From: Acidobacteriota bacterium
GTDB lineage: Bacteria > Acidobacteriota > Thermoanaerobaculia > Multivoradales > Multivoraceae
Assembly: GCA_036337765.1 (NCBI GenBank)
Contig: JAYZDP010000139.1
Coordinates: 13,923-77,922 of the forward strand
Reading direction: 5' to 3'
Length of the DNA: 64,000 nt
In this document: in pieces, positions 31,256-64,000 of the stretch
Layout of the letters: each line of letters opens with the position of its first letter
Position numbering within the stretch: position 1 is the first letter of the stretch
Made by a program: the position numbers and the translations under genes
The notes under the pieces: model-generated
Databases searched by the model: none
Seen by the model: the letters and a program-made list of their open reading frames with translations, nothing else
Told to the model about the DNA's origin: nothing

Positions 31256-31331
31256 GGCGGTGTAGCTCAGTCGGTAGAGCAAGCGGCTCATATCCGCTGC
31301 GTCAGGGGTTCGAGTCCCTTCACCGCCACCA
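31256..31331 (+). tRNA. tRNA-Met(CAT), probably elongator
   Basis: Acceptor GGCGGTG/CACCGCC; TAGCTCAG D-arm; anticodon arm AGCGG-CTCATAT-CCGCT; GGTTCGAGTCC T-arm; encoded CCA. Confidence 0.93.
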
Positions 31332-47172: not shown

Positions 47173-48846
47173 CTAGGGGTCTTCTATCCGTGTGCCGGCG
47201 CCGGCTACTAGTTCGTGGTAGCTGCCGACCTGGATGTCGGAGAAACGCTCGCGGCGGCCGTCTGGCCAACGCACGACGACCGAGACCTTCTTCTTTGCGG
47301 CCTCGCCGAGGGCGATGACCACTCGGGGGTCGCGGGCGGAGGCGTAGCTGCCGTCGGTGTGGACTATGCGCGTGGCTGCGGCGGGGCCTTCTAGCTCGGC
47401 GAAGACGGTGGCTCCGTGCGCGTCTCGGCCACCGGCTTGGAGGCGCAGGCGTAGGCCGATCCATGGCCGTGAGGTGTCGGCTTCGTTGCGCAGCGCCTGG
47501 ACGGGGCCGCTGTTGTTGGTGACGACGACGTCGGTGTCGCCGTCGTTGTCGATATCGCCAAAAACCGCGCCGCGGCTGACCCCGGAGACCGCGAAGGCGG
47601 GGCCGGCGACGGCGGTGACGACGTAGAACTCACGCCCACCGTTGGAGCGAAAGAGCTGGTTGTTCTCGTCGAGAGGGTACGGATCGGCCTGCCTGTCCGA
47701 GCCTGGCGGAAAGGTCACTCCGCCGTTGACGACCAGCAGATCGAGCCAGCCATCGAGGTCGTAGTCGACGAACCCGGTGCCGAAAGACGTGTAGCTCCAG
47801 CTCGGCGTGGCCAGGCCCGCCATCTCTGTCGAGTCCTCGAAAAAACCCCGGCCGTCGTTGACGTACATGGTGTTGGTTTCGCGGCTGAAGTGGGTCATGA
47901 AGATGTCGACGTCACCATCGGCATCGAAGTCCGCCGCGTCGACGCCCATCGACGCTTCCGCTCGACCCTCGGAGTTCAGCGAGCTCCCGGACGCCAGGCC
48001 CTGGTTGCGAAACCTGCCGTCCCCCTGATTGATCCACAGCTGGTTGGGCGTCAGATCGTTGGCGATGTAGAAGTCGACGAGACCGTCGCCGTCGAAATCC
48101 GCCGTCGACACGCCGAGCCCGTTTCCCGGCTCCTGGGTAAGGCCGGCCCTGGCGCTGACGTCGGCGAACGAGCCGTCACCGAGATTGCGGTACAGGCGGT
48201 CGGCGGCCGGGCCGTAGGCCTTCGGCAGGCAGTAGTCGTGCACACCGCGCTCGTTGAGGCAGGTCTTGTGCGCGCCGTAGGAGTACGTCAGGTAGTTGGC
48301 GACCACCAGGTCGAGCCAGCCGTCGGCGTCTAGGTCGACAAACGACGCGGAGCTTGAGAAGCGCGCGTCGCCCACTCCGGCGCGTGCCGTTGCGTTCTCG
48401 AAGCGACCCTCGCCGAGGTTGCGCCAGAGCTGATTGGCACCGAAGTTGGTGACGTAGAGATCGATATGGCCGTCGCTATCGTAGTCGCCCGTCGCGACAC
48501 CGATGCCGTAGCCCACGGCCTCGATGCCGCTCGCCTCGGTGACATCGACGAACTGCGCCACGCCATCGGTGAGGTCGTTGCGAAACAGTCGATCACGCAG
48601 CGGAAGGGGCTCGCGCGGCGGCACGATCGCGTCGTCCAAGGTGAGGCCAGGGCCGAGCATCGCGCCCTGGACGAGGTAGAGGTCGAGGTCGCCGTCACCG
48701 TCATAGTCGAACAGCGCCCCGCCGCTGCCGACCACCTCCGGATAGTAGAGGCGTCCCGACATGCCGTTGAAGTGGTGAAACGACAGCCCCCATTCCGCGG
48801 TCGCGTCCGAGAACGGCGCGGCTGCCGGCAGTAGCACTAACGACAT
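47173..48846 (-). CDS. CRTAC1-family FG-GAP/ASPIC-UnbV protein (type A)
   Basis: Many DxDxDGxxD repeats; C..DYC motif; UnbV GSYASARDPR...V.WPDG. Confidence 0.88.
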   Translation of the reverse strand: MSLVLLPAAAPFSDATAEWGLSFHHFNGMSGRLYYPEVVGSGGALFDYDGDGDLDLYLVQGAMLGPGLTLDDAIVPPREPLPLRDRLFRNDLTDGVAQFVDVTEASGIEAVGYGIGVATGDYDSDGHIDLYVTNFGANQLWRNLGEGRFENATARAGVGDARFSSSASFVDLDADGWLDLVVANYLTYSYGAHKTCLNERGVHDYCLPKAYGPAADRLYRNLGDGSFADVSARAGLTQEPGNGLGVSTADFDGDGLVDFYIANDLTPNQLWINQGDGRFRNQGLASGSSLNSEGRAEASMGVDAADFDADGDVDIFMTHFSRETNTMYVNDGRGFFEDSTEMAGLATPSWSYTSFGTGFVDYDLDGWLDLLVVNGGVTFPPGSDRQADPYPLDENNQLFRSNGGREFYVVTAVAGPAFAVSGVSRGAVFGDIDNDGDTDVVVTNNSGPVQALRNEADTSRPWIGLRLRLQAGGRDAHGATVFAELEGPAAATRIVHTDGSYASARDPRVVIALGEAAKKKVSVVVRWPDGRRERFSDIQVGSYHELVAGAGTRIEDP

Positions 48847-48875
48847 TCCGGCGACGAGAATCCGACGGGCCGGCT

Positions 48876-51059
48876 TCAGTGCTCACCCCCGAGGCTGAGC
48901 TCGGCGACGGACACCGCCACGAGCTCGGAGCTGCCCTCCACGACCCGGTAGACGTGATTGGCGGCCACGTCGGCGAAGACCTGAGTCGGTCCGGGAGCGG
49001 GCCAACGGACGGTCAGGCGCTCGATCGAGCTCGCCTCGCCGATTCCCAACTCCTGCTGCAGGCTAGACCCGCCGAAGGAGCCGCCACCGCCCACCAGCGC
49101 GTGAAACGACCGATTTCCCCCTGGGCCCGAAACCTCGAGCTCGATGCGGGCTCCGACGCCGAAGGAGTTGGCACGCGCACCTTCGAGCCGCAGTGTGACC
49201 CAGTTTCCTCCGCCGCCGGGATTCTCGAACAGGCTGTTGGCGTAGGTGTCGCCGGGATAGAAACCGCCGAGCTGATGGAAGAGGTCCTGATCGCCGTCGT
49301 TGTCGACGTCGCCGAAGGCCACGCCATGGCCCTTCTGGATGTGCGCGAAACCACCGACGAAGCTGACGTCGACGAAGCGCCCGGCAGTGTTGCGGTACAT
49401 GACGTTCGGCATCAGGCTCGCCAGGTCCGGCTCGCCGGTGCCGAGATAGATGTCGAGCCAGCCGTCGTTGTCGAGGTCCCCGTAGTTGGCGCCCATCGGC
49501 ATCAGCGGGCGCTCGAGGCCGACCTCGGCGGAGACCTCGGTGAAACGCCCGCCGTCGTTGCGATAGAGCAACGGTTGCCCGTCGTCGAACGACAGACCGA
49601 AGTAGGAGCCCGAGACCCGCGCGGGCTGCTGGCGGTAGTCGGCGACGAAGATATCGAGGTCGCTGTCGTTGTCGTAATCGAAGAACCACGCCGGGAAGCT
49701 CTCGCGCACCGGAGCCGTGACTTCCAGCTCCGGCGCCACGTCGACGAAGCGCCCGCCGCCGTCGTTGCGGTACAGGCGGTTCTCGCCGATGTTCGAAACG
49801 TAGAGATCGGGATCGCCGTCGTTGTCGTAGTCGCCCCAGGTCACCGCCTTGGTGTAGCGGTTGTTGGTGACTCCGGCCGCCGCCGCCACCTCACGGAAAC
49901 GCCCGTCGCCCTCATTGCGGAACAGCTGGTTCGGAAAGGCGTGAAGGAAGGTCCACTCGTTGCCGACGTAGACGTCGAGGTCGCCGTCGGCATCGTAGTC
50001 GGCCCAGGCGGCGGTGCCGGAGGCGAAGGCCGGCTCCGCCATGCCCGCGGCGCGGGTCACATCGACGAACTGTCCCACCTGGGTGTCGAGCTGGTTGTGC
50101 AGCAGTGAGTTGCGGATCCGGCCCTCACTCAGCAACCAGGCACCGCGCAAGACCAGCAGATCGAGCATGCCGTCGTCGTCGTAGTCGGCCTGCACCAGGT
50201 TGAGCCCGCCCAGCTGCCCGCTGAGGCCCCAGGCTTCGGTGACGTTCTCGAAGCCGCCACGCCCGTCGTTGCGGTAGGCCTTCATCGCGTCGCACGGATC
50301 CCAGGTCGTCGCCAACAGGTCCAGATGCCCGTCGCCGTCGAAGTCGTCCATGACCGCTCCACCCGCGAGATCGACCTCCGCCAGCCCCAGCTCCGGAGCC
50401 CGGTCGCGCCATCGGTCGAGCTGGGCATCGTTGGCGAGCGCGCCCGCCGGCAGCCGCAGGTTCTCCGGCACTCCGTCGGGCCAGTCGCCCGAGACCTGTC
50501 GAACCACGTTCAGCAACCACGCAGCCTGAACGTTGCGCGGGTGCCGGCCAGCGTAGTCCGCCAGTACGTCGCCGGCCCTTCGAGCGGCCTCGGGGCGGGT
50601 GTGGATACCCTCCTTCGTCACCGGCAACAGGCACGAGGCGGCATTGTGGTGGCCGATGCAGTTCTGGTCCTCGGCGAGCTGGATCCAGGCCAGAGCCAGG
50701 TGCCACTCGAGCGACGACACCAGCCCTCCCTCGGGCGCCGACGTGGCAGACACCTCGGCCAGGGCCTCGTCGAGCAGCTCGATGGCCGCCGCAGGATCAC
50801 CTAGCTTGAGCCTCTCCCGGGCCAGAATCCCTTTCCACCCTGCGCGCGTCGCCACATCTCCGCCGCCGGTCTCGAGCTGGGCCGTCGTCTCGAGCGCCAG
50901 GCGGTCGCTGAAGTAGAGGTTGTCGCCGGTTCTCAGACGCTCACAGACGGCCTCGAAAGTCTCGGCGCCTCTCGCGCCGGTTCCCGCAAGGACCGCCACG
51001 ACGGCGACTAGAAAGCGGAATGCCACGCCGCCAAGGCGCCCTGAAGCCAGAGCCGACAT
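48876..51059 (-). CDS. CRTAC1-family protein with N-terminal TPR-like region (type B)
   Basis: NCIGHHNAASC motif; FG-GAP repeats; HIQKGHG; GGSFGG UnbV domain. Confidence 0.88.
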   Translation of the reverse strand: MSALASGRLGGVAFRFLVAVVAVLAGTGARGAETFEAVCERLRTGDNLYFSDRLALETTAQLETGGGDVATRAGWKGILARERLKLGDPAAAIELLDEALAEVSATSAPEGGLVSSLEWHLALAWIQLAEDQNCIGHHNAASCLLPVTKEGIHTRPEAARRAGDVLADYAGRHPRNVQAAWLLNVVRQVSGDWPDGVPENLRLPAGALANDAQLDRWRDRAPELGLAEVDLAGGAVMDDFDGDGHLDLLATTWDPCDAMKAYRNDGRGGFENVTEAWGLSGQLGGLNLVQADYDDDGMLDLLVLRGAWLLSEGRIRNSLLHNQLDTQVGQFVDVTRAAGMAEPAFASGTAAWADYDADGDLDVYVGNEWTFLHAFPNQLFRNEGDGRFREVAAAAGVTNNRYTKAVTWGDYDNDGDPDLYVSNIGENRLYRNDGGGRFVDVAPELEVTAPVRESFPAWFFDYDNDSDLDIFVADYRQQPARVSGSYFGLSFDDGQPLLYRNDGGRFTEVSAEVGLERPLMPMGANYGDLDNDGWLDIYLGTGEPDLASLMPNVMYRNTAGRFVDVSFVGGFAHIQKGHGVAFGDVDNDGDQDLFHQLGGFYPGDTYANSLFENPGGGGNWVTLRLEGARANSFGVGARIELEVSGPGGNRSFHALVGGGGSFGGSSLQQELGIGEASSIERLTVRWPAPGPTQVFADVAANHVYRVVEGSSELVAVSVAELSLGGEH

Positions 51060-51135
51060 CGCGTCAGTATAGCTAGCAGCGGTCGGCGACGCTCCTGCCG
51101 GACAAGGCGACAAGGGCCTTTGCTAGCATCGCTCC

Positions 51136-52950
51136 ATGGCACGTTTCGCGGTCGTGATGGCCCTCTGCGCGGGCCTCGTAGCCTGCGGCCCGAGCGGTCG
51201 CAGCACGCCGTCGAACGGCGTCGGAGAGATCCCCGGGGACGCCCTCACGCAACCGGCGTTCGCTACCGACGACGATCCTGCAGCCCTGGTCGATCCGAGC
51301 CGCGACGGCTGGGACAGCGAGATCCTCAGCGCCGCCGCCGAGCAGCAGCTCTACCGCCTGGCGAACTGGCTCGCCGATCCCGCAAAAGAGGCCATCGACG
51401 TCGCTGGGCACGACTTCGCATCGTCGGTGCTGGCTCCCGAAACACTGTCGGAGCACTACTCGGACGGGGTCGTGACCGTGCGGCAGGGGACGATCGATTC
51501 CCGGGCCGTCGAACACCGTGGGCCGACGGGGCTGGCCGACGGAATCGATCGACAGAGGCGCCGGGTCGACGGCTTTGACCAGCGGAGGGCGACTCTGAAG
51601 CAGTTCAGGATCGAACTCGAAGAGTCGAGCTTCGTCACCCGGTCGTACTTCGAGCTGTCGGGAAGCCGCGAAGCTGGCGCCAAACAGATCAACTCGCTGT
51701 GGACCACCCGCTGGCAGCTCCCCGAGAGCACGGACGACGCGCCCCTGCTGATGGCAATCACGGTCGCCGACTACGAGGAGACGGAGACGCGCTCGGCGGA
51801 GCAATACGAGGACGTCACAGCGGCGGCGATCGGTCACAACCGCAGCTACGGGGAACAGATCCTCAAGGGCCCCGAGCACTGGCTGAGCCGGCTCACCAAG
51901 GGCCACGGTTTCTCCAAGGACGGCTGGCACGGCGTGTCGGTCGCCGACGTCGACGGCGACGGACTCGAGGATCTGTTCCTGGCCGAGCAGGGCGGGCTGC
52001 CGAACCGGCTATTCGTCCAAAGCGCCATCGGCACTTTCGACGACCGCTCGTCGGAGGCGGGCATCGACTTCCTGGAGCGCACCCTCGCCGGCCTGTTCGT
52101 GGATCTCGACAACGATGGCGATCAGGACCTGGTGCTGTCGCACCGGCCCGCGGTGCTGATCCTCGAGAACGACGGCAACGGCCGCTTCCAGGACGTCCGC
52201 TTCGTCGCCGGCGCGATTCCCGACAGCCACTCGGTGTCGGCGGCCGATTTCGACCTCGACGGCGACCTCGACCTCTACGTGTGCGCGTACCGCCGCGCAC
52301 CCAACGAGCGCGGCCTAGCCAGCCCTGTGCCCTACCACGATGCCAATAACGGTGGACGCAACGCTCTGCTGCGCAACGACGGCGGCTTCCAGTTCACCGA
52401 CGTGACGGCCGAGACCGGCCTCGACGCCAACAACCGCCGGTTCAGCCTGGCTGCCGCCTGGGAGGACTTCGACAACGACGGCGATCCTGACCTCTACGTC
52501 GCCAACGACTACGGCCGCAACAACCTGTACCGCAACGACGCCAAAGCGGGCGGGCAGTTGCGCTTCACCGACATCGCCGCCCAGGCCGGCGTAGAGGATG
52601 TGTCGTCGGGGATGTCGGTGAGCTGGGCCGACTACGATCGCGATGGTCGGATGGACGTCTACGTCGGCAACATGTTCTCGGCCGCCGGCAACCGCATCAC
52701 CTACCAGCGAAAGTTCGACGCGTTGCGTCGGCGGGCAGGTCCGCTGGCCGAAGTGCAGCGGATGACTCGCGGTAACTCGCTGTTTCGCAACGCCGGTCCT
52801 GCTACTTTTCACGACCGCAGCGAAGCCGAGGCCGTCACCATGGGGCGCTGGTCGTGGTCGTCGCTCTTCGCCGACATCAACAACGACGGCTGGGAGGACC
52901 TCGTGATCGCCAACGGCAACCTCACCCAGACCAACCCCGACGACTTGTGA
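51136..52950 (+). CDS. FG-GAP beta-propeller lipoprotein; N-terminal part of a probable UGA-recoded CDS 51136..55362
   Basis: LVAC lipobox; DxDxDG repeats; ends mid-propeller at PDDL-TGA, in frame with the next ORF. Confidence 0.85.
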   Translation: MARFAVVMALCAGLVACGPSGRSTPSNGVGEIPGDALTQPAFATDDDPAALVDPSRDGWDSEILSAAAEQQLYRLANWLADPAKEAIDVAGHDFASSVLAPETLSEHYSDGVVTVRQGTIDSRAVEHRGPTGLADGIDRQRRRVDGFDQRRATLKQFRIELEESSFVTRSYFELSGSREAGAKQINSLWTTRWQLPESTDDAPLLMAITVADYEETETRSAEQYEDVTAAAIGHNRSYGEQILKGPEHWLSRLTKGHGFSKDGWHGVSVADVDGDGLEDLFLAEQGGLPNRLFVQSAIGTFDDRSSEAGIDFLERTLAGLFVDLDNDGDQDLVLSHRPAVLILENDGNGRFQDVRFVAGAIPDSHSVSAADFDLDGDLDLYVCAYRRAPNERGLASPVPYHDANNGGRNALLRNDGGFQFTDVTAETGLDANNRRFSLAAAWEDFDNDGDPDLYVANDYGRNNLYRNDAKAGGQLRFTDIAAQAGVEDVSSGMSVSWADYDRDGRMDVYVGNMFSAAGNRITYQRKFDALRRRAGPLAEVQRMTRGNSLFRNAGPATFHDRSEAEAVTMGRWSWSSLFADINNDGWEDLVIANGNLTQTNPDDL

Positions 52951-52978
52951 AGCTTCTTCTGGCGGCAGGTCGTGCCGC
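52948..52978 (+). promoter_or_regulatory. In-frame UGA with a candidate bacterial SECIS hairpin
   Basis: TGA at 52948-50, an 11-nt spacer, then GCGGCA-GGTCG-TGCCGC (52962-52978). Confidence 0.7.
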
Positions 52979-55362
52979 GCGCCCCACGAGCCCCGGGCGA
53001 CGCCTCGGTCGGCGACTATCTAGACTCGCTCGCCGACCTCCACGAGCGCCTCGACGAGGGCATGTCGTGGAGCGGCTCCGAGCGCAACTGCGCCTATCTG
53101 AATCCGGGCCGTCCGGACGCCTCGCGCTTCGCCAATGTCTCTGCCGTCAGCGGGCTGGACTTCGACGACGACGCGCGCGGCCTCGCCGCCTTCGATTGGG
53201 ACCACGATGGCGATGTCGACCTCGCCCTGTCGAACCGCACGGCGCCGCGGCTGCGCCTGATGCGCAACACCCATCCGAACGCGACGGCATCGATCGTGGT
53301 GGAAGTCGCCGGCGACGGCACGCGCACCAACCGTGACGGAGTCGGCACCCGCATCGCGCTTGACACCGACCAGGGGACCATGGTGCGCAGTGTCCGTGCC
53401 GGCGACGGCTTCCTCTCGCAGTCGTCGAAGGCGGTCCATTTCGGCCTCGGCTCGGCGACGCCGCGCGGAGAGCTGACGGTCACCTGGCCAGGCGGCGGCA
53501 CGGAGACCTTCCCCGTTCCCCGACCCGGCAGCCGCGTCCGCCTGGTTCAAGGCTCGGGCCTTGCACGTGAGGTCGCAGCCCGCGACCTCACCGCCGATCT
53601 CCTGTCATCGTCGCAGCGCCCCGACGCACCCACCACCGGGGAACGGATCGTTCTGCCAACGCGGCCTCCCGCTCCCTCGCTGACCATCGAGGCGTACGCG
53701 GAGGGAGAGGTCCGACCCGTCGAGATCACCGCCAAGCCAACCCTCATCAATTTCTGGGCGAGCTGGTGCATCCCCTGCCGCGGCGAGCTCGAAGATCTCG
53801 CCGACAGCGCTGCGAGCCTCGAGAGCGCGGGCCTGGAGATCGTCGCTCTGGCGACCGACGGCCTGGGCGAGGATCCCCCGACCACGGCAGCCGACGCCGA
53901 GGCGTTCATGGCGCGCATCGATTTCCCGTTCACCCACGGCCGTGCCACGGCAGAGACTCTGGACAAGATCGAGATCGTCAAGCGCTATCTCTTCGACCGA
54001 CGGTTCCCACTGTCGCTGCCCTTCTCGCTCCTAGTCGACGCGCAGGGCAATGCTGCGGCCCTGTACCGTGGCGGCCTCGAGAGCGCCGATCTGATCGCCG
54101 ACCTCGACCACATGTTGCCGGCCACCGCCGTGGAGCGACGCGACATGTCGGTGCCCTTCTCCGGCAGGTGGTTCGCGGAACCCCGGCAACGAGCCGCCGT
54201 CGGTCGCTACGCGCGATGGTTCGAGGACGACTATCCCGACGAGTCGCTGGCACTGCTCGAGCGCGCCGTCGAGCAGGCGTCCGAGCGGCTGGACAGCGCT
54301 CACGAGAGCTTCGAGAAGGTCGACGCCCGCAACGAGCTCTTTGCCGCGTACAAAGACCTGGCCCGGATCGAGCACGAGCTCGACCGCCATGAGCCGGCCG
54401 CGCGCCACTACCGGGCGGCGCTCGAGCTCGAGCCACGAGATCCAGCGGCCCGCACGGCGCTTCTCGGCGTGCTGCGTTCCATCGGCGAGCACGGCGAGCT
54501 CGAGACCCTGCTCACTCGTTGGCTGCGGGAGGACTCCGGCAACGTCGAGCTACATGTGCGACTCGCGGAGCTGCTGGAGGACAACAATGACCTAGCGGGC
54601 GCGACGCGTGAGCTCGGCCGAGCCGTCGCGCTCCGACCCCAAGACGCGGATCTTCACTTCCTCCTGGGTCGAACGTTGGCACGGCAGAGCTCGATGCCCG
54701 CCGCCCTGGAGCAGTTCGAGGCCACCGTCGCTCTTGCCCCGGGCGACGCGGAGGCGCACTTCTTCGCCGGCGTCGTCGCGGCCGGGATGGGGCGCGGCGA
54801 GAAGGCGCTGGATCACCTCGGCAGAACTCTCGTGCTCGACCCCGGCCATCGCAACGCTCGGTTCGAGAGCGCCAGGGTGCTGACGGGGACCGGACGCGTC
54901 GAGGCCGCGATACCGCTGTATCAGGCGATCGTCGGTGAGGACCCCGAGGACGCCGCGGCGCACAGCGGGCTCGGGCTTGCGCTCGTGCAAGCGGGACGCC
55001 ACGAGGAGGGTGGCGTGCACGTGCGCCGGGCCTACACCCTGGACCCGCAGTTCCTCGGCACGGGTAACAGCGCGGCCTGGATCATGGCCACCCATCCGGA
55101 CGCGCGCTACCGCAACGGAGCGCAGGCATTGCTGATCGCCGAGGAGCTCAACGCCAGAACCGAGAACCGGGAGCCCGCGCTGCTCGAGACCCTGGCCGCC
55201 GCCCAGGCCGAGGCGGGAGCCTTCGACGACGCCGTAGCAACCGTAGAGCGAGCGATCGAGCTGGTCGGTTCCTCCGGCCAGACGCGCGCGGCGCAGCAGC
55301 TCGCCTCCCGGCTCCAGCTCTACCGCAGCCGGCGCCCGTTCCGCGACCCAGGGCTGGGTTAG
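52951..55362 (+). CDS. Last FG-GAP blade, ASPIC/UnbV, TlpA-like redoxin (WCIPC) and TPR repeats; C-terminal part of the probable selenoprotein
   Basis: SFFWRQVV..., DWDHDGDVD, AGDGFLSQSS, INFWASWCIPC and a TPR array. No own RBS or signal peptide. Confidence 0.85.
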   Translation, partial: SFFWRQVVPRAPRAPGDASVGDYLDSLADLHERLDEGMSWSGSERNCAYLNPGRPDASRFANVSAVSGLDFDDDARGLAAFDWDHDGDVDLALSNRTAPRLRLMRNTHPNATASIVVEVAGDGTRTNRDGVGTRIALDTDQGTMVRSVRAGDGFLSQSSKAVHFGLGSATPRGELTVTWPGGGTETFPVPRPGSRVRLVQGSGLAREVAARDLTADLLSSSQRPDAPTTGERIVLPTRPPAPSLTIEAYAEGEVRPVEITAKPTLINFWASWCIPCRGELEDLADSAASLESAGLEIVALATDGLGEDPPTTAADAEAFMARIDFPFTHGRATAETLDKIEIVKRYLFDRRFPLSLPFSLLVDAQGNAAALYRGGLESADLIADLDHMLPATAVERRDMSVPFSGRWFAEPRQRAAVGRYARWFEDDYPDESLALLERAVEQASERLDSAHESFEKVDARNELFAAYKDLARIEHELDRHEPAARHYRAALELEPRDPAARTALLGVLRSIGEHGELETLLTRWLREDSGNVELHVRLAELLEDNNDLAGATRELGRAVALRPQDADLHFLLGRTLARQSSMPAALEQFEATVALAPGDAEAHFFAGVVAAGMGRGEKALDHLGRTLVLDPGHRNARFESARVLTGTGRVEAAIPLYQAIVGEDPEDAAAHSGLGLALVQAGRHEEGGVHVRRAYTLDPQFLGTGNSAAWIMATHPDARYRNGAQALLIAEELNARTENREPALLETLAAAQAEAGAFDDAVATVERAIELVGSSGQTRAAQQLASRLQLYRSRRPFRDPGLG

Positions 55363-55383
55363 GCCCCCCTACGCCTCAACCCT

Positions 55384-56724
55384 CTACCTGGCTCTGCGGT
55401 AGCGATCAAGCTGCTGGCGATACTCACGCAGCTCGTGGGGCGGCGCGCCGGTCTCCTGGATGACCGTGAGGGCCTGTGCCATGCGCTGCGCGGCCTCGGG
55501 ATAGCGACCGACGTCGGCGAAGGCGGCAGCGAGATCGACGAACAGCTGCGCCATGACCGGCGCCATCAAGGACTCACGGTTGCGCATTGCGTAGGCATGG
55601 TCGAGGTGGCCGATCATCAAATCGATCTCGTTGCGCTGCGCCGCACCCATCGCCGACAGCACGAGCATGTGGAGGTTGTCGGGATCCTCCTCCAGGACCT
55701 CGGCGGCGATCGGCTCGGCCTCGTCGAAGCGCTCGAGCTTAAAGAGCGCCGACGCCAGCACCGGCTTCGCGACCGCCAGGTCCGGATCGGCGGCCAGGGC
55801 CTTCTGCACCGCGTGCAGGGCCTTGGCGGCGTCCCCCGTCCGATCGTAGAGGCCGGCGGCGAGAAACCAGGCCTGTGCGTGATCGGGTGAGAAGTCGAGC
55901 ACCGCCTCGACCTCGGCCCGCGCGCGCGACAGGTCGCCGACGTCGGCGTAGGTCCGGCTACGACGAAGATAGCTGGTCGAGTCCACGGCGAGAGCTTCGA
56001 CGCCGGCCCGAATCGAGTCCTTGTGGGGGAGCGTACGTGGCAGCGATCGCGCCTCCTGCGCCTTCTGTCTGGCGGCTTCACGATCTCCCGTCAGAGCGTA
56101 GGCACGCGCCAGGGTCGCCACGGTCGCCTGAATGCCTGCGTCGATCCGATAGGCCTGCTCGAGGTGTCGCACAGCCTCTTCGACCCTGCCTGCGGCGAGG
56201 GCCAGGCGCCCGAGTCCGAGCGGGCCGAGGGGGTCGGTCGGATCGAGATCGGAAGCGCTGCGGTACTGGACCTCGGCGTCGGCATCGCGGCCGACTACCT
56301 CGAGAGCCTGTGCGTAGCGGATGCGGCTCGGGGCGTAGGCGGAGTCGAGCGCGGTCGCTCGCTCGTACCAACCCAGTGCCTCCTCCGGGCCCGAGTACTC
56401 GAGCAGGGTTGCGAGCAGGTAGGGCCAGCGCACGTCGCGATCGTCGAGTGCGAACGCTTCGCGATAGGCCGCGGCGGCCTCCGTCGGAAGGTGGTGGGCA
56501 TCGAGAATCATCCCGTAGCGACCCCAGGAATCGGCATCGCCCGTGGCGTCGGCAACAGCCTGACGCGCCGCGCCGATCGCCTCCTCGACCCTCGCCTCCA
56601 CGCCCTCGAGATCGGGGCTAGGGATCTCGGCGGTGCTCGCGACGCCGGCGCACAAGAAGACTGCCGCGACACCGGCCCAACCGGATGGGACCCGATAGAC
56701 TCCAACCTCCCTCAACGCCCCCAT
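55384..56724 (-). CDS. Exported TPR-repeat protein
   Basis: Hydrophobic N-terminus and multiple TPR helical repeats. Start uncertain. Confidence 0.8.
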   Translation of the reverse strand: MGALREVGVYRVPSGWAGVAAVFLCAGVASTAEIPSPDLEGVEARVEEAIGAARQAVADATGDADSWGRYGMILDAHHLPTEAAAAYREAFALDDRDVRWPYLLATLLEYSGPEEALGWYERATALDSAYAPSRIRYAQALEVVGRDADAEVQYRSASDLDPTDPLGPLGLGRLALAAGRVEEAVRHLEQAYRIDAGIQATVATLARAYALTGDREAARQKAQEARSLPRTLPHKDSIRAGVEALAVDSTSYLRRSRTYADVGDLSRARAEVEAVLDFSPDHAQAWFLAAGLYDRTGDAAKALHAVQKALAADPDLAVAKPVLASALFKLERFDEAEPIAAEVLEEDPDNLHMLVLSAMGAAQRNEIDLMIGHLDHAYAMRNRESLMAPVMAQLFVDLAAAFADVGRYPEAAQRMAQALTVIQETGAPPHELREYRQQLDRYRRAR

Positions 56725-59161
56725 GAGCGTCTTCGAAGGCATCCGTCTAGTCGATCTCAGCGGCACAGTTGCGACGTCCTACTGCGGCAAGCTCTTCGCG
56801 AGCTTCGGGGCAGACGTTATCAACGTGGAGCCGCCGGGCACGGGCAATCCGACCCGATCGTTGCCACCGTTCGGCGACGCTGCCGACCCCCCGGAGTCAA
56901 GCGCCCTCGCAGGCTGGCTCGATGCCGGCAAACGCTCCGTCGTCGCCGATCTGGGAAGCGATGAAGGGCGCGAGCACGCTCGTGCCCTGATCGCGGGGGC
57001 GCAGATCGTCATCGAGGGCCACCGGCCAGGAGCTCTCGCCGCCAGGGGGATCGACCCCGAGAGCCTCGACTCCAGCCTGTCGGCGCCGATCGTGGCCTCG
57101 ATCAGCTGGTTCGGCCAGACCGGACCCTGGGCGCAGTTCGAGGCCACCGACGCCACCATCCACGCCCTGATCGGTCAGGTACGCGGCTTCGGACCTCGAG
57201 AGGGTCCGCCGCTGGCTCCTGCCGGTTACGAAGTGCAGACCATCGGCGGACTGACCGCGTTTGTGGCGATCGTCGGACAGCTCATCGGACTCGAGCGCGG
57301 CTCGATCTCCCGGCCAGGCCATCTCGACATCAGCCTCTACGAGGCCGCCCTGTGCCTGGTCGAGGTTGGTGCGGTCGCATCGCACAACATCGACGAGCCG
57401 CCGAAGCCGCGCCTCGGCCTGAACCGTTACTGGCCTACCTTTCCGGCCGGTATCTACGCCTGCCGGGATGGTTGGGTGGGCATCACCGCCCTTCTTCCGA
57501 CTCAGTGGCGTAGTTTCTGCGAGTTGATCGGAGCGCCAGAGATCGCCGACGAAGCGCGCTTCGCGCTCCACGCCGATCGGCACGAGGCCGCCGACGAGCT
57601 CGACGCGATCTTCACCGAGAAGCTCGCTGCTCGAGACGCCGAGTACTGGTTCCACGAGGGGCAGAAACGCCGCATTCCGCTGGCAATGGTGCCGACCATG
57701 GCCGACCTGCTCGAGTGCGAGCAGTTCGTCGAGCGCGGTGCTTTCGGCGAGATCCACCATTCCGAGCTCGGCGCGTACCGCGCGCCCGGCGTTGGGTTCC
57801 GCCACCAGCTGACGCCGGCCATCGCGGATGGGCGGGCGCCGCGGCTCGGTGAGCACAACCTCGAGGTGGCGGCATCGGATCACCGCCCACCTGACAGCTC
57901 GAACAGCAACCGTCAGGACGAGGGCGGGAAGGCCCGAAGACCGCTCCACGGTCTGCGGGTCGTCGACCTGTCGATGGGCTGGGCCGGGCCGCTTGCGGCG
58001 CGGCACTTGGCCGACCTCGGGGCCGAGGTGGTCAAGGTCGAGTCGTGCAGCCACTTCGACTGGTGGCGTGGCTGGGAAGTGACCGAGGAAGTGCTTGCCG
58101 ACAACGGCCTCGAGAAGTCCTGGGCGTACCACAGCGTCAACCGCAACAAGCTCGACGTCACGCTCGAGCTCACCAATGACACGGCCACCGATCTGCTCAA
58201 GCGCCTGGTCGCGACCGCGGATGCCGTGGTTGAGAACTTCGCCGGCACGGTTTTGCCCAAGCTCGGCATCGGCTACGAAGTCCTTCGCCGGCACAACGAG
58301 AAGATCGTCATGCTGTCGATGCCGCCCTTCGGCGCCAGCGGCGACTGGCGCGGCTACCGAGCCTACGGCTCGACCGTCGAGCAAGCGTCGGGCCTACCTC
58401 ACCTGCAGGGCTATGGCGATTGGCCACCGATCATGCAGCACGTGGCACTGGGTGACCCGATCGCAGGGCTCAACGGCGCCGCCGCCGCGGTCGTCGGCCT
58501 GTTCCATCAGCAGCGCACCGGCGTCGGGCAGCTCGTCGATCTGTCGCACGTCGAATGCCTCTTTCCGTTCGCCGCGAGCGGTCTAGTCGCGGAGAGCCTC
58601 GGCAGCACGCTCCCCAGAAGGCACGGACACCGCCACCCTCACTACGCGCCGCACGGCGTCTACCGCTGCGCCGGAGAGGACCGCTGGCTCGTCGTCAGTG
58701 TCACGAGCGGCGAAGTGTGGCGGGCCTTGGCAGGCTGCGTGCCGGGGCTCGACGATCCGGCACTCGACAACATCGACGAGCGACGGCGACGCCACGACGA
58801 GATCGATGGCGCCGTTTCCCACTGGGCCATGGACCGCGTCGACACCGAGCTAGTCGAGGAGCTGCTGGCCGCGGGGGTCGCGGCGGCGACGGTGCGCCAC
58901 TCCAGCGCGCTGTTGACCGACCCGCAGCTCACGGCGCGCGAGTTCTGGCAGTGGGCCGAGGGAGAAGTCGTCGGCCGCCAGCCCAACCCCTCCGCCCCCT
59001 ACCGCATTGACGGTCGCTACCCTGAGGTGCGCTGGCAGGCCCCGACGCTGGGCGGTCACAACCGCGAAGTCCTACACGGAATGCTCGGCCTCTCGGACGA
59101 TGAGCTGGCCCGACTGGCGAGCGACGGCATCATCGGCACCCGTCCGACAGCCAAGAGTTAG
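56723..59161 (+). CDS. Tandem two-domain CaiB/BaiF CoA-transferase
   Basis: Two class III domains (GADVINVEPP...GKRS; LGAEVVKVES...NRNK, ENF). Confidence 0.9.
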   Translation: MSVFEGIRLVDLSGTVATSYCGKLFASFGADVINVEPPGTGNPTRSLPPFGDAADPPESSALAGWLDAGKRSVVADLGSDEGREHARALIAGAQIVIEGHRPGALAARGIDPESLDSSLSAPIVASISWFGQTGPWAQFEATDATIHALIGQVRGFGPREGPPLAPAGYEVQTIGGLTAFVAIVGQLIGLERGSISRPGHLDISLYEAALCLVEVGAVASHNIDEPPKPRLGLNRYWPTFPAGIYACRDGWVGITALLPTQWRSFCELIGAPEIADEARFALHADRHEAADELDAIFTEKLAARDAEYWFHEGQKRRIPLAMVPTMADLLECEQFVERGAFGEIHHSELGAYRAPGVGFRHQLTPAIADGRAPRLGEHNLEVAASDHRPPDSSNSNRQDEGGKARRPLHGLRVVDLSMGWAGPLAARHLADLGAEVVKVESCSHFDWWRGWEVTEEVLADNGLEKSWAYHSVNRNKLDVTLELTNDTATDLLKRLVATADAVVENFAGTVLPKLGIGYEVLRRHNEKIVMLSMPPFGASGDWRGYRAYGSTVEQASGLPHLQGYGDWPPIMQHVALGDPIAGLNGAAAAVVGLFHQQRTGVGQLVDLSHVECLFPFAASGLVAESLGSTLPRRHGHRHPHYAPHGVYRCAGEDRWLVVSVTSGEVWRALAGCVPGLDDPALDNIDERRRRHDEIDGAVSHWAMDRVDTELVEELLAAGVAAATVRHSSALLTDPQLTAREFWQWAEGEVVGRQPNPSAPYRIDGRYPEVRWQAPTLGGHNREVLHGMLGLSDDELARLASDGIIGTRPTAKS

Positions 59162-60894
59162 GGTAGATCGCTCGTTCCGGTGCCTCGGGCGAGCGTCACG
59201 GTTTGGCGGGCCGCGGCCCCGGGGAAGCTCTCACGAGTACCGTCGGGCCAGCGCACCTCGAAACGGTCGACCTTCTCGGCTGCGGCGAGGCCGAACCAGA
59301 CACTGAGCGGGCTCGAGGTCAGGTAACCGCCAGAGGCCTGCACGAGGCGCAGCAGCCGCAGCTCACCGACATGCGCGACTACCTGAGCTCCAGGCGAGCC
59401 ACCGTGCTCGAGGTCGTCGAGCACGACCTCGATCCACCCTGAGGAGTTCCCACCGTCGTTTCGCCACAGGCGGGCGCGGCCCTCGATCTGCGTCGTCAGA
59501 AGATCCAGGTCGCCGTCGCGGTCCAAGTCAGCAGCCACCAGCCCACGGCTGACCTCGACAGATTCCCCCCAGGCACCGGTCTCGCCAGTCACGTCGAGGA
59601 ATCGGCCGCCGCCTACGTTCTCCAGCAGGCTGTTGGGCTCGGCATACAGGTGGAGACTCGTCGCCGGGTGCGCCAGTGTCGTGGGGCGCTGCTTCACCGC
59701 ACCGTTGACGACCACCAGGTCGAGATCGCCGTCGTTATCGAGATCTGCGAGCGCGTCACCGAAGCCGGTATAGGGAATGCTCGCCACGCCGAGGCCGCTG
59801 GTGCCGGTGGCGTCCTCGAAGCCGGCATCATTGCGATTCTCGTAGAAGGTGTTGGTCTCCTCGATGAGATGGCTGACGAAGACGTCTGCGTCCGCATCGC
59901 CGTCTAGGTCGCCAATAACCACTCCCATGCCGCCCTCGGCCACGCCGTAGCGGTTGAACGCCAACCCCACGAGCAGCGCGTCTTCGACGAAACGGCCGTC
60001 CCCCTGGTTGGTCCACAGGTGGTTGGGGTCGGCGTCGTTGGCGACGTAGAGATCCAGCTGGCCATCGGCGTCGAAGTCGTGACACAACACTCCCAGTCCG
60101 GCATCGGCCAGGGTCGCGATACCTGAGCTACGTGAGCGGTCTTCGAAGCGGCCGTCGCCCCGGTTGCGGTAGAGCCGATCGGAGAGGCCTTCGAAACGCA
60201 CCGGGCCGCAGTAGTCGACACGGCCGCCTTCGACCCGGCACTCGGTACCGGGGTCGTAGTCGACATAGCGGGCAACGAACAGGTCGAGCAGCCCGTCGCC
60301 GTCGACATCGCAGAACACGGCCGAGGTAGACCATCCCTCGTCACCGACGCGGGCACGGTCGGTAATGTCTCGAAAGTGACCGGAGCCATCGTTGAGGTAG
60401 AGAGAGTCGCGACCCCAGTTCGAGACGAAGAGATCGGTATCGCCATCGTTGTCGATGTCACCCGCGGCGGCTCCCATGCCATAGCGATCGTCGCCGAGGC
60501 CCGAGTCAGTGGTTGCGTCGACGAAGCTGCCATCGGTCTGTTGGAGAAAGAGCGCGTTCGCGGCGCCCGCCGGGCCCCGATCCGCGGGGAAGCGCTCGCC
60601 GCCGTTGATCAGAAAGACGTCGAGATCGCCGTCGCCCTCGGCATCGAAGACCGCGGCGCCGCTCCCCATGATCGCCGGCATCGGTGTCTCGAGCCCGGCG
60701 CCCGCGTAGTGGCGGAACTCGAGCCCGGACTCGGCCGAGATCTCGACCCACGAGACCCGGCTGGCGAGCTCTCCGACAGAACCCGCGGCGCGGTCGCCGC
60801 GGCCACTGGTCCCCGGGCCGGCGTCATCAACGCAGGCGGCCGCTGCGGCCACCAGCAGCACGACCGCGGCTGACCGCCCGTTGTCAGCTCCCAT
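59158..60894 (-). CDS. CRTAC1-family FG-GAP/ASPIC-UnbV lipoprotein (type A)
   Basis: AAAC lipobox; FG-GAP repeats; C..DYC motif; GGYLTSS...VRWPDG. Confidence 0.88.
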   Translation of the reverse strand: MGADNGRSAAVVLLVAAAAACVDDAGPGTSGRGDRAAGSVGELASRVSWVEISAESGLEFRHYAGAGLETPMPAIMGSGAAVFDAEGDGDLDVFLINGGERFPADRGPAGAANALFLQQTDGSFVDATTDSGLGDDRYGMGAAAGDIDNDGDTDLFVSNWGRDSLYLNDGSGHFRDITDRARVGDEGWSTSAVFCDVDGDGLLDLFVARYVDYDPGTECRVEGGRVDYCGPVRFEGLSDRLYRNRGDGRFEDRSRSSGIATLADAGLGVLCHDFDADGQLDLYVANDADPNHLWTNQGDGRFVEDALLVGLAFNRYGVAEGGMGVVIGDLDGDADADVFVSHLIEETNTFYENRNDAGFEDATGTSGLGVASIPYTGFGDALADLDNDGDLDLVVVNGAVKQRPTTLAHPATSLHLYAEPNSLLENVGGGRFLDVTGETGAWGESVEVSRGLVAADLDRDGDLDLLTTQIEGRARLWRNDGGNSSGWIEVVLDDLEHGGSPGAQVVAHVGELRLLRLVQASGGYLTSSPLSVWFGLAAAEKVDRFEVRWPDGTRESFPGAAARQTVTLARGTGTSDLP

Positions 60895-63103
60895 CGATCA
60901 CCTCCAGGACCGAAGATCCCTCCACCAGTCTGTAGACACGATCCACCGCAACATCGCCGCTGAACACCTGAGTGGTGTCGGTGGTGGGCCAATGAACTTC
61001 GATATGGTCAATGTCGAGAGCCCTGCCGATACCCACAGTCTGCCGCAGCGGGTTGCCGCCGAAGCTCGATCCGCTCGACACCCAACGGTAGGCGTCGCGC
61101 GAAGTCCCCCCGAGAGATGTTGTGACCCGAATGCGGGCACCGATCGCGGAGCGGTTGGAGGTCTTCCCGACCAGCTCCAGCGCAATCCAATGGTTGCCAA
61201 AGCCCGGATTTTCGAACAGGGCATCTCCGAAGCGATCGCCAGGGAAGGCCCCGCCCATCTGCTCGAAGATGTCGAGATCGCCATCGCCGTCGATGTCGCC
61301 GAAGGCCACAGCGTGGCCCTTCTGCAGGTGGCCGAGCCCGGCCGGTACGGTGACGTCGGCGAAGCGAACGCCGCCGCGGTTGTGGTACAGCACGTTCGGC
61401 ATCAGCGCCTCGTAGTCGGGATACCCCGTCCCCAGGTAGAAGTCGAGATAGCCGTCGTTGTCGAGGTCGCCGAAGTTCGACCCCATCGGCAGGTGGAGGC
61501 GCTCGAGGCCCACGCTCGCGGCCACATCACGAAACCCGCCACGCCCGTCGCCCTTGTAGAGCTTGGCCACCTCCCACGGACCCTCGATGCCGAGCGCACT
61601 CGCCGCGACGAAGGCGACACCGTCCACGTCGCCCTTGTAGCTCGAGACGTAGAGATCGAGGTCGCCGTCGTTGTCGAAGTCCCAGAACCAGACCGGAAAG
61701 CTCTGCTGCGGACCCTGCACTCCCGCCTGGGCGGCGACGTCGCGAAAGGTGCCGTCGCCCTCGTTGTGAAACAGGCGATTCGGCCCTCCGAGGACGGAGA
61801 CGTAGAGGTCGGGATGGCCATCGGCGTCGTAGTCACCCCAGGTGACTCCCTTGACGAAGGCTTCCACCGCAACGCCCGCGACCTCTGCAACGTCGGTGAA
61901 ACGGCCGTCACCCGCGTTGCGAAAGAGCTGACTGCGCGCCGACGCCTCCGGGTCGGGAAGGTGTTCGTTGCCGACATACAGGTCGAGGTCGCCGTCGTTG
62001 TCGTAGTCGGCCCAGGCGGCGGTCTGCGTCGGATAGTGCTGCTCGCCAAGACCGGCGGCGAAGGTGACGTCGACGAACACGCCATCGTCGTTGCGCAGCA
62101 GCGAGTTCGGATGCCGCCCCTCCCCCGCAAACCAGGCGCCCCGCAGCACGTAGAGGTCGAGGTCGCCATCGTTGTCGTAGTCGGCATGGGTGACGTTGAG
62201 ACCCCCATAAAGACCCTCGAGGCCGGCCGCCGCGGACCTGTCCTCGAACGTCCCGTCTCCAGAGTTCAAGAACAGGTGCGGCTGCCCCGCGGTGTCGAAG
62301 GTGGTGGTGAAGACGTCGAGGTCGCCGTCGCCGTCGAGGTCGTCGAGCACCGCTCCGCCCGACAGATTGAAGGTATCCAGCCCCTTCGCCGGAGCCACGT
62401 TCGTGAAGTGCGGAAAGGACGCGGCGGAGCCGAAGACCTCCAGGGGCAGCTGCCACTCCTCCTCCAGGGAGTCCGGATACTCCCCCAACGTCATCGCCGC
62501 GATGTTGAGCAGCCAGACGGCTTTGACGTAGCGGGGTGAGGAGCGTGGTGTCACTCCAAGGTACTCTCGTAGGTAGCGCTGAGCTTGCCGCGAGCCGTCT
62601 TTCTCAACATGGACGCCTTGTGCGCGGATCGGCAGGATGCACGAGTCGGCGTTGTGTCGCTTGGCGCAGTTCTCGGTCTCCGCGAAACGCAGGTTGGCGA
62701 CGGCGAGCCGAAACAGCGTCTCCGCGGACTCCCGCGACGGTACTGCCGCGAGCTCGGGCAGAAGCGTGCGAGCGGCCTGCAGCCGCTCGATCGCGACTGC
62801 CTCGTTGCCGAGGCGCAGCTCGTGCTCCGCCACCTCGGCCAGCAGCCGCCATCGTGCCTCGGCAGGAGCGCTACCCTCTAGCGCGTCGATCAGCAGCCTG
62901 CGGGAGTCTCGAGCGGGGCCCTCGCCGAACCACGGATTCTCCTCGTCGGTGGCGAGCCGAATCGCCTCGAGCTCGGCGAGCATGCGGCGATGGCTCTCAC
63001 GGGCCGCAGTCGGCGTGATCGGATCGGCCCCGCCGAGGACTCCTGGCAGCGCCAAAGTCCAAAGAACGAGCAGACAAGCTGCCGACGACCGAAAGATCCT
63101 CAC
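60884..63103 (-). CDS. CRTAC1-family protein with N-terminal TPR-like region (type B)
   Basis: Signal peptide; NCAKRHNADSC; HLQKGH; SGSSFGGN UnbV domain. Confidence 0.88.
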   Translation of the reverse strand: MRIFRSSAACLLVLWTLALPGVLGGADPITPTAARESHRRMLAELEAIRLATDEENPWFGEGPARDSRRLLIDALEGSAPAEARWRLLAEVAEHELRLGNEAVAIERLQAARTLLPELAAVPSRESAETLFRLAVANLRFAETENCAKRHNADSCILPIRAQGVHVEKDGSRQAQRYLREYLGVTPRSSPRYVKAVWLLNIAAMTLGEYPDSLEEEWQLPLEVFGSAASFPHFTNVAPAKGLDTFNLSGGAVLDDLDGDGDLDVFTTTFDTAGQPHLFLNSGDGTFEDRSAAAGLEGLYGGLNVTHADYDNDGDLDLYVLRGAWFAGEGRHPNSLLRNDDGVFVDVTFAAGLGEQHYPTQTAAWADYDNDGDLDLYVGNEHLPDPEASARSQLFRNAGDGRFTDVAEVAGVAVEAFVKGVTWGDYDADGHPDLYVSVLGGPNRLFHNEGDGTFRDVAAQAGVQGPQQSFPVWFWDFDNDGDLDLYVSSYKGDVDGVAFVAASALGIEGPWEVAKLYKGDGRGGFRDVAASVGLERLHLPMGSNFGDLDNDGYLDFYLGTGYPDYEALMPNVLYHNRGGVRFADVTVPAGLGHLQKGHAVAFGDIDGDGDLDIFEQMGGAFPGDRFGDALFENPGFGNHWIALELVGKTSNRSAIGARIRVTTSLGGTSRDAYRWVSSGSSFGGNPLRQTVGIGRALDIDHIEVHWPTTDTTQVFSGDVAVDRVYRLVEGSSVLEVIDGS

Positions 63104-63163
63104 CCGGCAACTCTATCCCCGGATTCCACTCACTCCGTCCTGGGAGCGCGGCCCTTCGAGGAC

Positions 63164-63197
63164 AAAGAAAAATGGAGGGGGCCGAAGCCCCCTCCAT
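63164..63197 (-). terminator. Rho-independent terminator of the TonB receptor gene
   Basis: ATGGAGGGGGC-TTCG-GCCCCCTCCAT followed by TTTTCTTT on the minus strand. Confidence 0.85.
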
Positions 63198-63223
63198 ATT
63201 CAGGCTAACTCTCTAAGCGAGAG

Positions 63224-64000
63224 CTACAGGCCGATCTTGAAAGAGGCCCGAAGCAGACGCGGGCGCTGGTACATGCGCCGGGCGGGGAAGACCTCACCAA
63301 TACTGTTGTGCTCCATCACCTTCTGCTGGTCGGTGATGTTGACCGCCTCGACCCGAAACTCGCCGCGAAGACCCTTCTTCGGCAGCGGGAATCCGTACGA
63401 GACCGACAGATTCAGCACGTACGAGTCGTTCTCTCGACGACCCTGACGTCCCGTCTCGTGCAGCTGCAGGCTCACACCGTCGTTCGGTGTACCCGGCTTC
63501 AGCAACTCGGCGGGAATACCGTCGGCGCTCGAAGTGATGTTCGTCACAGACACTCCCTCGCTACGCGCCCAGGGCATGCCGGACTGGAACTTCAGGTGGC
63601 CGCCCAACGTCAGGTCGTTCTTGCCAAAACGCCAGGTCTTGAAACCGAACGAGTTGTAGATGATCGACCGATCCGCGCTCAGGTTTGGACCCCGACGGTG
63701 GATCGTCGACACCGGCTGACCCAGAAACTGTGTCAGTGCGTCAGTGCAGTCCATCGGGTTCGTGCGGGTCCGTCCCGTAGCGCGACTCGGATTCGTCTGA
63801 CTGGCGTTGCAGTCATCGATCATGTCCTGATTCAACACGACCGTCAGGTTCTCCAGGTAGGAAGAGTTGGTGTTGTTCCACCAAGCACCGGCACCCGTCG
63901 TGTCGGTCTCTCCCCAGGAGATGTTGTTGTACACCGCGAAGCCGCCGGCAAAGCGACGGTTCAACTGCACCTGAAGCGCGCGGTAGCTGTTACGGGCCCG
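63224..64000 (-). CDS. TonB-dependent (Oar-type) outer-membrane receptor, C-terminal part, running off the window
   Basis: SYRALQVQLNRRF, FQSGMPW, FRVEAVNITDQQ and YQRPR...ASFKIGL beta-strand ending. Frame is open to the window edge. Confidence 0.78.
   Translation of the reverse strand, partial: RARNSYRALQVQLNRRFAGGFAVYNNISWGETDTTGAGAWWNNTNSSYLENLTVVLNQDMIDDCNASQTNPSRATGRTRTNPMDCTDALTQFLGQPVSTIHRRGPNLSADRSIIYNSFGFKTWRFGKNDLTLGGHLKFQSGMPWARSEGVSVTNITSSADGIPAELLKPGTPNDGVSLQLHETGRQGRRENDSYVLNLSVSYGFPLPKKGLRGEFRVEAVNITDQQKVMEHNSIGEVFPARRMYQRPRLLRASFKIGL

Follow-up and report, generated by a model that had tools for sequence, protein, structure and literature searches.

A predicted selenocysteine-containing CRTAC1/UnbV propeller protein and a recurrent propeller–TPR gene cassette in an acidobacterial paralog array

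The array examined here consists of five CRTAC1/ASPIC-UnbV-type propeller genes at positions 47173 to 64000 of a 64,000-nucleotide stretch (the window) from an Acidobacteriota genome, GenBank assembly GCA_036337765.1. The window spans positions 13923–77922 of contig C139 in an assembly of 4.0 Mb (66% GC, 90% complete, 235 contigs), and its genes have their closest named orthologs in Thermoanaerobaculia (Acidobacteriota). Two of the paralogs, A1 and A2, are type A propellers; two, B1 and B2, are type B propellers with an N-terminal helical domain; and the fifth, S, carries an in-frame TGA codon and is very likely a selenoprotein. Type A genes recur in related genomes together with a downstream gene for a tetratricopeptide repeat (TPR) protein.

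Read from right to left, the array comprises a receptor gene (−), a terminator-like hairpin, B1 and A1 (−), a CoA-transferase family III gene (+), a TPR gene (−), S (+), and B2 and A2 (−) (Table 1). The array is not one operon because the strand switches three times; S is transcribed away from B2 and towards the TPR gene, an orientation that the initial annotation did not mention. All five paralogs match the Pfam FG-GAP_3 repeats and UnbV_ASPIC (PF07593) above cut-off, which bears out their placement in the initial annotation, as does the presence of its NCxxxHxxxSC-type motif in type B and C..DYC motif in type A. The ordered B-then-A pair that it described does occur twice on the minus strand, each pair directly adjoining. 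Between the pairs it listed S and the TPR gene, which are present, but it missed the CoA-transferase gene that splits A1 from the TPR gene. It further described S as a UGA-containing redoxin paralog; the in-frame TGA is there, but it lies in the propeller and not in the redoxin domain, which has an ordinary CIPC motif. The receptor gene was correctly placed upstream of B1, but a terminator-like hairpin stands between the receptor stop and B1.

Table 1. Features of the propeller array in window coordinates
Feature	Position	Strand	Remark
A2: type A CRTAC1-like propeller + UnbV	47173–48879	−	Cys pair C196/C206, numbered from ATG 48846
B2: TPR-like helical domain with NC..H..SC pair, propeller, UnbV	48876–51059	−	
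S: 1408-codon UGA-containing gene, fifth paralog	51136–55362	+	
In-frame TGA of S, codon 605 (DDL-U-SFFWRQVV)	52948–52950	+	Predicted selenocysteine
Hairpin resembling a bacterial selenocysteine insertion sequence (bSECIS)	52962–52978	+	6-bp stem, GGUCG loop, 17 nt after UGA
Cys652 of S	53089–53091	+	Candidate partner thiol of Sec605
Redoxin CxxC of S	53767–53778	+	CIPC, residues 878–881
Free TPR gene	55384–56766	−	Cognate partner gene of A1; start codon uncertain
Double-domain CoA-transferase family III gene	56723–59161	+	Between A1 and TPR gene; E 1.6e-166
A1: type A propeller + UnbV	59158–60894	−	Possible lipoprotein; C219/C229
B1: TPR-like helical domain, 7-blade propeller, UnbV	60884–63103	−	C146/C155
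Intrinsic-terminator-like hairpin, in gap from receptor stop to B1	63172–63197	−	11 pairs + T-tract
3′ end of outer-membrane receptor gene (1152 aa)	63224–64000	−	Continues to C139:80604

The array proteins share with murine CRTAC1 (structure 9etn) the seven-blade FG-GAP propeller followed by UnbV (PF13517 and PF07593), an architecture given for CRTAC1 in the available part of PMC10477339. In a sequence search with A1, 9etn was the only match (E 4.6e-17), and it was also the best structural match of the B1 model (Z 38.9, root-mean-square deviation 2.5, 464 aligned). Unlike murine CRTAC1, the bacterial forms have fused or adjacent TPR modules and subtype-specific cysteine pairs and lack the EGF-like tail; S adds a SnoaL-like N-terminal domain, a selenocysteine (Sec) codon and a redoxin domain. 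Each propeller protein contains six to seven DxDxDG-type motifs and is predicted to bind calcium. Signal peptides and lipoboxes, judged by eye only, include LVAC17 in S and AAAAC21 in A1. No NCBIfam model exceeded its cut-off for any array protein, and NCBIfam holds none for a Sec-containing CRTAC1.

S is composed of the lipobox-like LVAC17, a predicted SnoaL/NTF2-like domain, the seven-blade FG-GAP propeller with Sec605, UnbV, a TlpA/ResA-like redoxin domain and C-terminal TPRs. The redoxin domain matches AhpC-TSA (E 4e-10), with the TlpA and ResA models well below their cut-offs, and its WASWCIPC motif is like that of TlpA/ResA-type periplasmic thiol-disulfide reductases. It differs from these in being fused behind a propeller, and the Sec lies outside the thioredoxin fold, unlike in the listed UGC-type TlpA selenoproteins. 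The frame of 1408 codons is interrupted by a single TGA. When translated through this codon, S is modelled as one confident CRTAC1-like propeller with UnbV (predicted local distance difference test score, pLDDT, 94; predicted template modelling score, pTM, 0.94), whose best structural match is again 9etn (E 8.8e-25). In the model, blade 6 carries a long helical insertion between its second and third strands, with residue 605 at its start and Cys652 at its end. Intact full-length homologs of S are single proteins of 1200–1450 amino acids. Gene callers split S, and its downstream half in this genome is a separate 796-aa database protein.

Codon 605 is conserved as TGA. It is TGA in 106 of 110 loci, a count in which the window's own locus is included, the two contributing searches overlap and one genus is over-represented; the distant loci among them are the best 80 of 523. 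The frame is always kept and the codon is never TAA or TAG. The remaining loci have GCC (two, one of which is a misalignment with TGA a few codons on), GAG and GAC. The 112 TGA sites provide 94 distinct 48-base contexts, and among the matches listed, S genes with TGA occur in Acidobacteriota, Planctomycetota, Verrucomicrobiota, Myxococcota and other phyla.

The hairpin behind the TGA has the features of SelB-pathway genes with a SECIS inside the reading frame. Its five-nucleotide loop starting with GG, its six-base-pair stem and its distance of 17 nt agree with the bSECIS model set out in the available part of PMC13188914, namely a loop of 3–9 nt with G in its first two positions, 16–37 nt from the UGA. 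Each pair holds in 91–93 of the 94 contexts, four standard pair types occur at pair 18–28, synonymous positions do not vary, and three non-TGA loci have a disrupted hairpin. Across 69 distinct rows, 96.9% of cells are paired with 16 double changes, a level reached in 0 of 500 shuffles (which ignore relatedness), and slid-structure controls pair 14–66% of cells. Because the window hairpin folded by itself is not better than shuffles (z +0.7 to +1.4 on short stretches), the support for a bSECIS comes from this covariation.

The genome carries selC for a tRNA-Sec with UCA anticodon (73 bits), selB, and a selD that itself contains a TGA and a similar loop; selA was not found in this assembly. The conserved TGA, the covarying hairpin and the genes present make it very likely that the UGA-containing gene encodes a selenoprotein. 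SelB acting on the GGUCG hairpin would very likely insert Sec at codon 605, which predicts a 1408-residue lipoprotein. As a selenoprotein, S represents a strong prediction from sequence, with a known mechanism, an unusual site and few Cys counterparts.

Related TGA-containing genes were also observed elsewhere. On contig C188 near position 17425 (−), an in-frame TGA with a GGUC-loop hairpin lies in a peroxiredoxin-like context (VVW-U-PYC) and likely marks a further selenoprotein of this genome. In several planctomycete and verrucomicrobial genomes (L071, L076, L078, L083, L088, L100), a pair of S genes, both containing TGA, lie no more than 10 kb apart. More distant CRTAC1-like genes (34–36% identical to the query; G048, G057, G038, G045) have one in-frame TGA each, compared for presence alone. 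A sister family in Planctomycetota (L063:13553-15108, L090:990-2585) has a TKDYC..FWCHD motif with a Cys at or beside the Sec position; the distant paralog in L090 aligns TGC at the Sec codon.

Selenoprotein candidates of this kind have been listed before. In the planctomycetes P1 and P2, four split genes with ASPIC/UnbV and FG-GAP domains were termed 'selenoprotein gene candidates' in 2016; a SECIS was called for three of them, and the closest match has a non-Cys residue (G) (PMC4807772, S9 Table); the main text, in its available part, does not name the four. By their description, they are very probably of the same family as S. In contrast to the present analysis, PMC4807772 provides no family definition, conservation, covariation or domain analysis. 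The S family is absent from the 119 selenoprotein families listed in the available part of PMC13188914, and the terms ASPIC, UnbV, FG-GAP, CRTAC1 and VCBS appear neither in the text and one supplement of PMC13326102 nor in the main text of PMC12013277. No description of the S family or the array was found in a literature search without most subscription papers and without the supplements of PMC12013277 and PMC13188914. The family is outside the current (2026) selenoprotein inventory and database.

The role of Sec605 can be approached through the residues that accompany it. Of the TGA forms, 93 of 94 retain the redoxin CxxC, versus 14 of 91 non-TGA forms; for Cys652 the corresponding counts are 76 of 103 and 10 of 91. 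Full-length homologs with a sense codon at this site were surveyed in the best 120 of 2108, a set in which TGA-split genes cannot appear. Among the 99 aligned at ≥40%, the Sec position is occupied by N (34), D (18), S (15), E (13), A (9), C (4) and others (6), and three of the four Cys605 homologs keep both Cys652 and CxxC. Recycling of its own Sec by the CxxC would be the most likely mechanism. In a more detailed form that we regard as evenly balanced, Sec605 would sit in the blade-6 insertion opposite the calcium-binding DxDxDG loops, a placement taken from general propeller topology. There it would be oxidised by a periplasmic substrate or oxidant, often close onto Cys652, and be re-reduced by the CIPC domain. 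An obligatory pairing of Sec with Cys652 was rejected in view of the TGA forms that lack this Cys and of the independent contrasts (below); we take Cys652 as optional.

In the type A family, the conserved unit is a propeller gene followed by a TPR gene, a linkage far tighter than that of B to A. Matches to the window TPR protein were found in 38 of 60 relatives. In 29 loci besides the window (best match per genome; 21 from one genus, eight genera in total), the TPR ortholog is in every case preceded by a type A gene in the same orientation that ends about 300 bases or less before it, and in 28 this gene is of the A1 subtype; among these loci and the window, a CoA-transferase gene intervenes only in the window. 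Another survey was centred on type B genes: of the 81 B matches in 60 relatives of the family or order, 42 lie in the 40 stretches examined (each up to 20 kb long), in which a TPR gene follows 25 of 34 type A genes. Similarities of A and TPR proteins correlate across 29 A genes (Spearman 0.81, 0 of 2000 permutations). The pairs sort by paralog subtype and not by genome, with several genomes giving more than one pair, and each A subtype has its own TPR subtype. The A→TPR order also occurs on contig C176 of this genome. A2 has no usual TPR partner behind it; the ortholog of that partner is on contig C163.

Two further stretches of the genome hold related genes. Contig C209 has a second cluster of four CRTAC1 genes (C209:34892-52252), arranged as B<-receptor, then A->TPR->A->TPR, two secreted proteins without a Pfam family, and A->TPR; the sister genes of B1 and A1, as well as those of the TPR gene and the receptor, all lie in this cluster. 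On C163:1505-5484, a TPR gene (52% identical to the window TPR over 224 residues) is followed by a second TPR gene, the ortholog of A2's usual partner, and by an A1-like propeller gene without a UnbV match; this stretch is another reshuffled cassette.

Type B proteins appear to carry the TPR scaffold within the same chain. The N-terminal 200 residues of the B1 model are all-helical (pLDDT 95, pTM 0.95). This domain resembles the free TPR family (82.6%, E 9.6e-6), and its first Atlas match is a TPR-named cluster at 0.93; Pfam assigned no family to the N-terminal domains of B and S. Every propeller type thus comes with a TPR module, fused or adjacent, since the B N-domain is TPR-like, S has C-terminal TPRs and type A genes have a TPR gene behind them. 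Each type A protein would probably bind the TPR protein encoded behind it, so that two chains provide what B carries in one.

The proposed separation of types A and B agrees with the tree of the 17 paralogs of this genome with a UnbV match, in which four B genes (support 100/99) and ten A genes (99/99) form distinct clades. Their cysteine motifs are conserved as anticipated: both cysteines of the A pair are invariant in 54 of 54 alignment rows, and in type B one is invariant and the other present in at least 90% of 66 rows. These pairs are likely structural disulfides, because their cysteines are spaced 9–10 residues apart in exported proteins. The tree does not support local duplication of a B–A module, since the two pairs are not sisters and each gene has its sister on another contig. 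A1 groups with C209:45138 (64% identical), B1 with C209:34934 (60%), A2 with a gene on C176 (48%) and B2 with a paralog on C231, whereas A1 and A2 are 41% and B1 and B2 47% identical to each other.

A B→A order conserved across Acidobacteriota and Planctomycetota, as had been suggested, was not found. Of the 39 B genes in the survey that lie away from a contig edge, eight have A next, four a receptor, one another B and 26 something else. The eight B→A cases are all in the window's own family; five are B2→A2 (four genera) and three B1→A. A type A gene is present in 26 of the 40 stretches and absent nearby in 14. Within this genome, the B gene on C231 has no A beside it, and that on C209 follows a receptor paralog, with its A genes in the opposite direction. 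Across Acidobacteriota, B was found in 28 of 150 genomes, with B→A in 0 of 28 loci (three with fewer than 700 bases downstream); 16 of 121 Planctomycetota genomes gave 24 loci, with B→A in none and A before B in three. The expected co-localisation of A, B, TPR and receptor genes stands as clustering within the family, but not as a fixed order, and it does not extend to S. Among 25 relatives with S, 16 have B on the same contig at a distance of 230 kb or more, seven have it on a different contig and two gave no B; the flanks of 80 distant S loci hold no B ortholog, with several holding other CRTAC1 paralogs (25–38% identical) or a second S gene. Gene neighbourhood lends no support to the idea that the Sec/CxxC protein acts on the A and B cysteines at this locus, as S is unlinked to B in all 23 relatives with both.

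The receptor comprises CarboxypepD_reg and the beta-barrel PF25183, in a 1152-aa protein that runs past the window edge; its earlier label, 'Oar-type', is unsupported by any search here. It is directly beside B1 in six stretches and beside B on both C139 and C209, where the paralog before the B gene is 50% identical. Despite reshuffling, this receptor subfamily (43–67% identical) is found near B1 in several genera. Homologs of the CoA-transferase occur in five of the 40 stretches. In one related genus (L117, L118, L119, L135, L136), CoA-transferase homologs (46–50%) flank clusters of A, TPR, B1 and receptor genes, and the gene may be more than a random insertion. The terminator scan as a whole gave six sites versus 7.3 in shuffles, and three of the six rows are the hairpin behind the receptor gene.

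SusC/SusD-like loci combine an outer-membrane receptor with TPR-bearing helper proteins. The array likewise clusters a receptor gene with genes for exported TPR-containing and lipid-anchored proteins. It differs in that no SusD/RagB match was found in Pfam or NCBIfam for B1, A1 or the TPR protein, the gene order is not fixed, and a terminator-like hairpin follows the receptor gene.

Taken together, the array is a reshuffled family-level cluster of A→TPR cassettes, B genes and a receptor gene. Its density of propeller genes is ordinary for the lineage, because five relatives hold 14–28 UnbV matches each, and one of them (G005) has five in 17 kb; this genome has 17 UnbV matches and 19 CRTAC1-like genes. 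Under the reading that we favour, the locus would represent a lineage-specific gathering of old CRTAC1/UnbV paralogs, loosely shuffled. The conserved unit would be a propeller with a TPR scaffold, fused in B and S and supplied by a separate downstream gene for A. Next to a TonB-type receptor, the propellers would likely serve in the envelope as ligand binders or adaptors. S would very likely be a selenoprotein, with a Sec that is predicted to be recycled by its own CxxC domain and not to act on the cysteines of A and B. As a whole, we regard this combination as reasonably probable. More tentatively, B1-type proteins could assist the neighbouring receptor in substrate capture.

Several observations weigh against parts of this interpretation. 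Cys is rare at the Sec position, unlike in most selenoproteins, and the site is dispensable in large clades, because N, D, S, E and A dominate there. Cys652 is missing from 27 of 103 TGA forms. On a 159-row FastTree tree built with the trait columns removed, which yields eight independent contrasts, the association of Sec with CxxC is one-sided and not significant (4.6 in the same direction, 0.3 opposite, median p 0.125), and Sec and Cys652 have no link (1.8 versus 0.3, p 1). SelA was not found in this assembly; this is likely an assembly gap, because SelA is present in 60 of 60 relatives and the assembly is 90% complete. Of the 49 genomes that contain 50 of the 80 distant loci, 47 encode SelB, a figure without the SelB background rate for those phyla, and three genomes with a non-TGA homolog still carry SelB. 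A receptor homolog occurs in 10 of the 40 B-centred stretches, in either order, and phylum-wide a weak receptor match lies within 1.5 kb of B in one of 28 loci. The linkage and co-divergence of A and TPR genes also follow from joint duplication and are no proof of binding. Finally, the recurrence of B2→A2 in five stretches and the apparent translational coupling of B2 and A2 in the window may leave a B–A link open. The probable A2 start, read by eye, is CTG 48879, which overlaps the B2 stop and gives A2 a signal-peptide-like N-terminus.

The alternatives concerning the array differ in what they take the clustering to mean. An obligate B–A heteromer, derived from a duplicated B–A module and serving the receptor, with cysteines maintained by the Sec/CxxC protein, would explain the two B→A pairs with overlapping stop and start in the window, the recurrence of such pairs within the family, the type A genes in most B-centred stretches and the receptor beside B1 and on C209. 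We consider it improbable: the pairs are not sisters, their order is absent from the wider phylum and from Planctomycetota, B genes often stand without a nearby type A gene, S is distant from B, and a terminator-like hairpin follows the receptor gene. The clustering could instead be mostly historical, arising by recombination among similar paralogs, such that beyond A→TPR there is no common function of B, the receptor, the CoA-transferase and S. The variation of order and strand among relatives agrees with this, as do the separation of A1 from its TPR gene, the location of A2's TPR ortholog on C163, the number of paralogs per genome and the frequent position of S genes near unrelated CRTAC1 paralogs or second S copies. 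Yet the recurrence of one receptor subfamily and of the CoA-transferase beside B1 in several genera argues for more than shared history, and we judge this explanation somewhat unlikely.

For S, the TGA could be a real stop, with two genes and re-initiation or low-level read-through without Sec, and the hairpin a by-product of the conserved WRQVVS peptide. SFFWRQVV is indeed also conserved in non-TGA homologs, Cys homologs are rare, and SelA was not found in this assembly. Against this, TAA or TAG never occurs at the codon and the frame is always kept, and the hairpin has fixed synonymous positions, four pair types at pair 18–28 and a broken structure in non-TGA loci. A stop would also cut blade 6 of what is modelled as a closed propeller, and intact homologs are single proteins, so that a real stop is very improbable. 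Alternatively, Sec605 may be inserted but serve in metal or ligand binding on the propeller face, with the redoxin domain acting on other clients. This is consistent with the typical ligand residues N, D, E and S, rarely Cys, in non-TGA homologs and with the loss of Cys652 in about a quarter of TGA forms. The near-universal CxxC in Sec forms, its rarity in the others, and the retention of both thiol motifs in most Cys605 homologs point to thiol-redox chemistry, which leaves a purely ligand-binding role unlikely.

The S family escapes a standard Cys/Sec-pair search because its Cys homologs are rare, which suggests that other such families have been missed. Sec marks a functional site and provides a first direct handle on the role of the bacterial CRTAC1/UnbV proteins, which are very numerous and uncharacterised. 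With a distinct TPR subtype for every propeller subtype, the A→TPR rule offers a testable partner for each type A protein. A bolder and still tentative proposal would make a large, multi-phylum part of the CRTAC1/UnbV family exported selenoenzymes that bear Sec on the ligand-binding side of the propeller and recycle it with a built-in thioredoxin; this selenium site would have no CxxU/UxxC motif and almost no Cys counterpart. Types A and B with their TPR partners would then form the selenium-free part of one common envelope system that feeds TonB-type receptors, and such propellers would not be just adhesion scaffolds. Expansion of ASPIC/UnbV as a paralog family is described for Solibacter in the available part of PMC3174227. 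UnbV may in addition be linked to enediyne biosynthesis, on which a literature search gave no passage.

A promoter scan of the array returned no promoter. One marine metatranscriptome contained 6% of window words; its contigs match the receptor 3′ end (643 bases, 14 differences) and 202 bases of S, which does not suffice to rank genes or to show co-transcription. A short open frame at 46863–47048 (+) resembles by eye the C-terminal half of a STAS (anti-sigma-antagonist) domain; this identity was rejected, with no Pfam match at E 0.05, and the frame is possibly a remnant at a rearrangement junction. A tRNA-Met gene (CAT) at window positions 31256–31331 (+) is unrelated to the propeller array.

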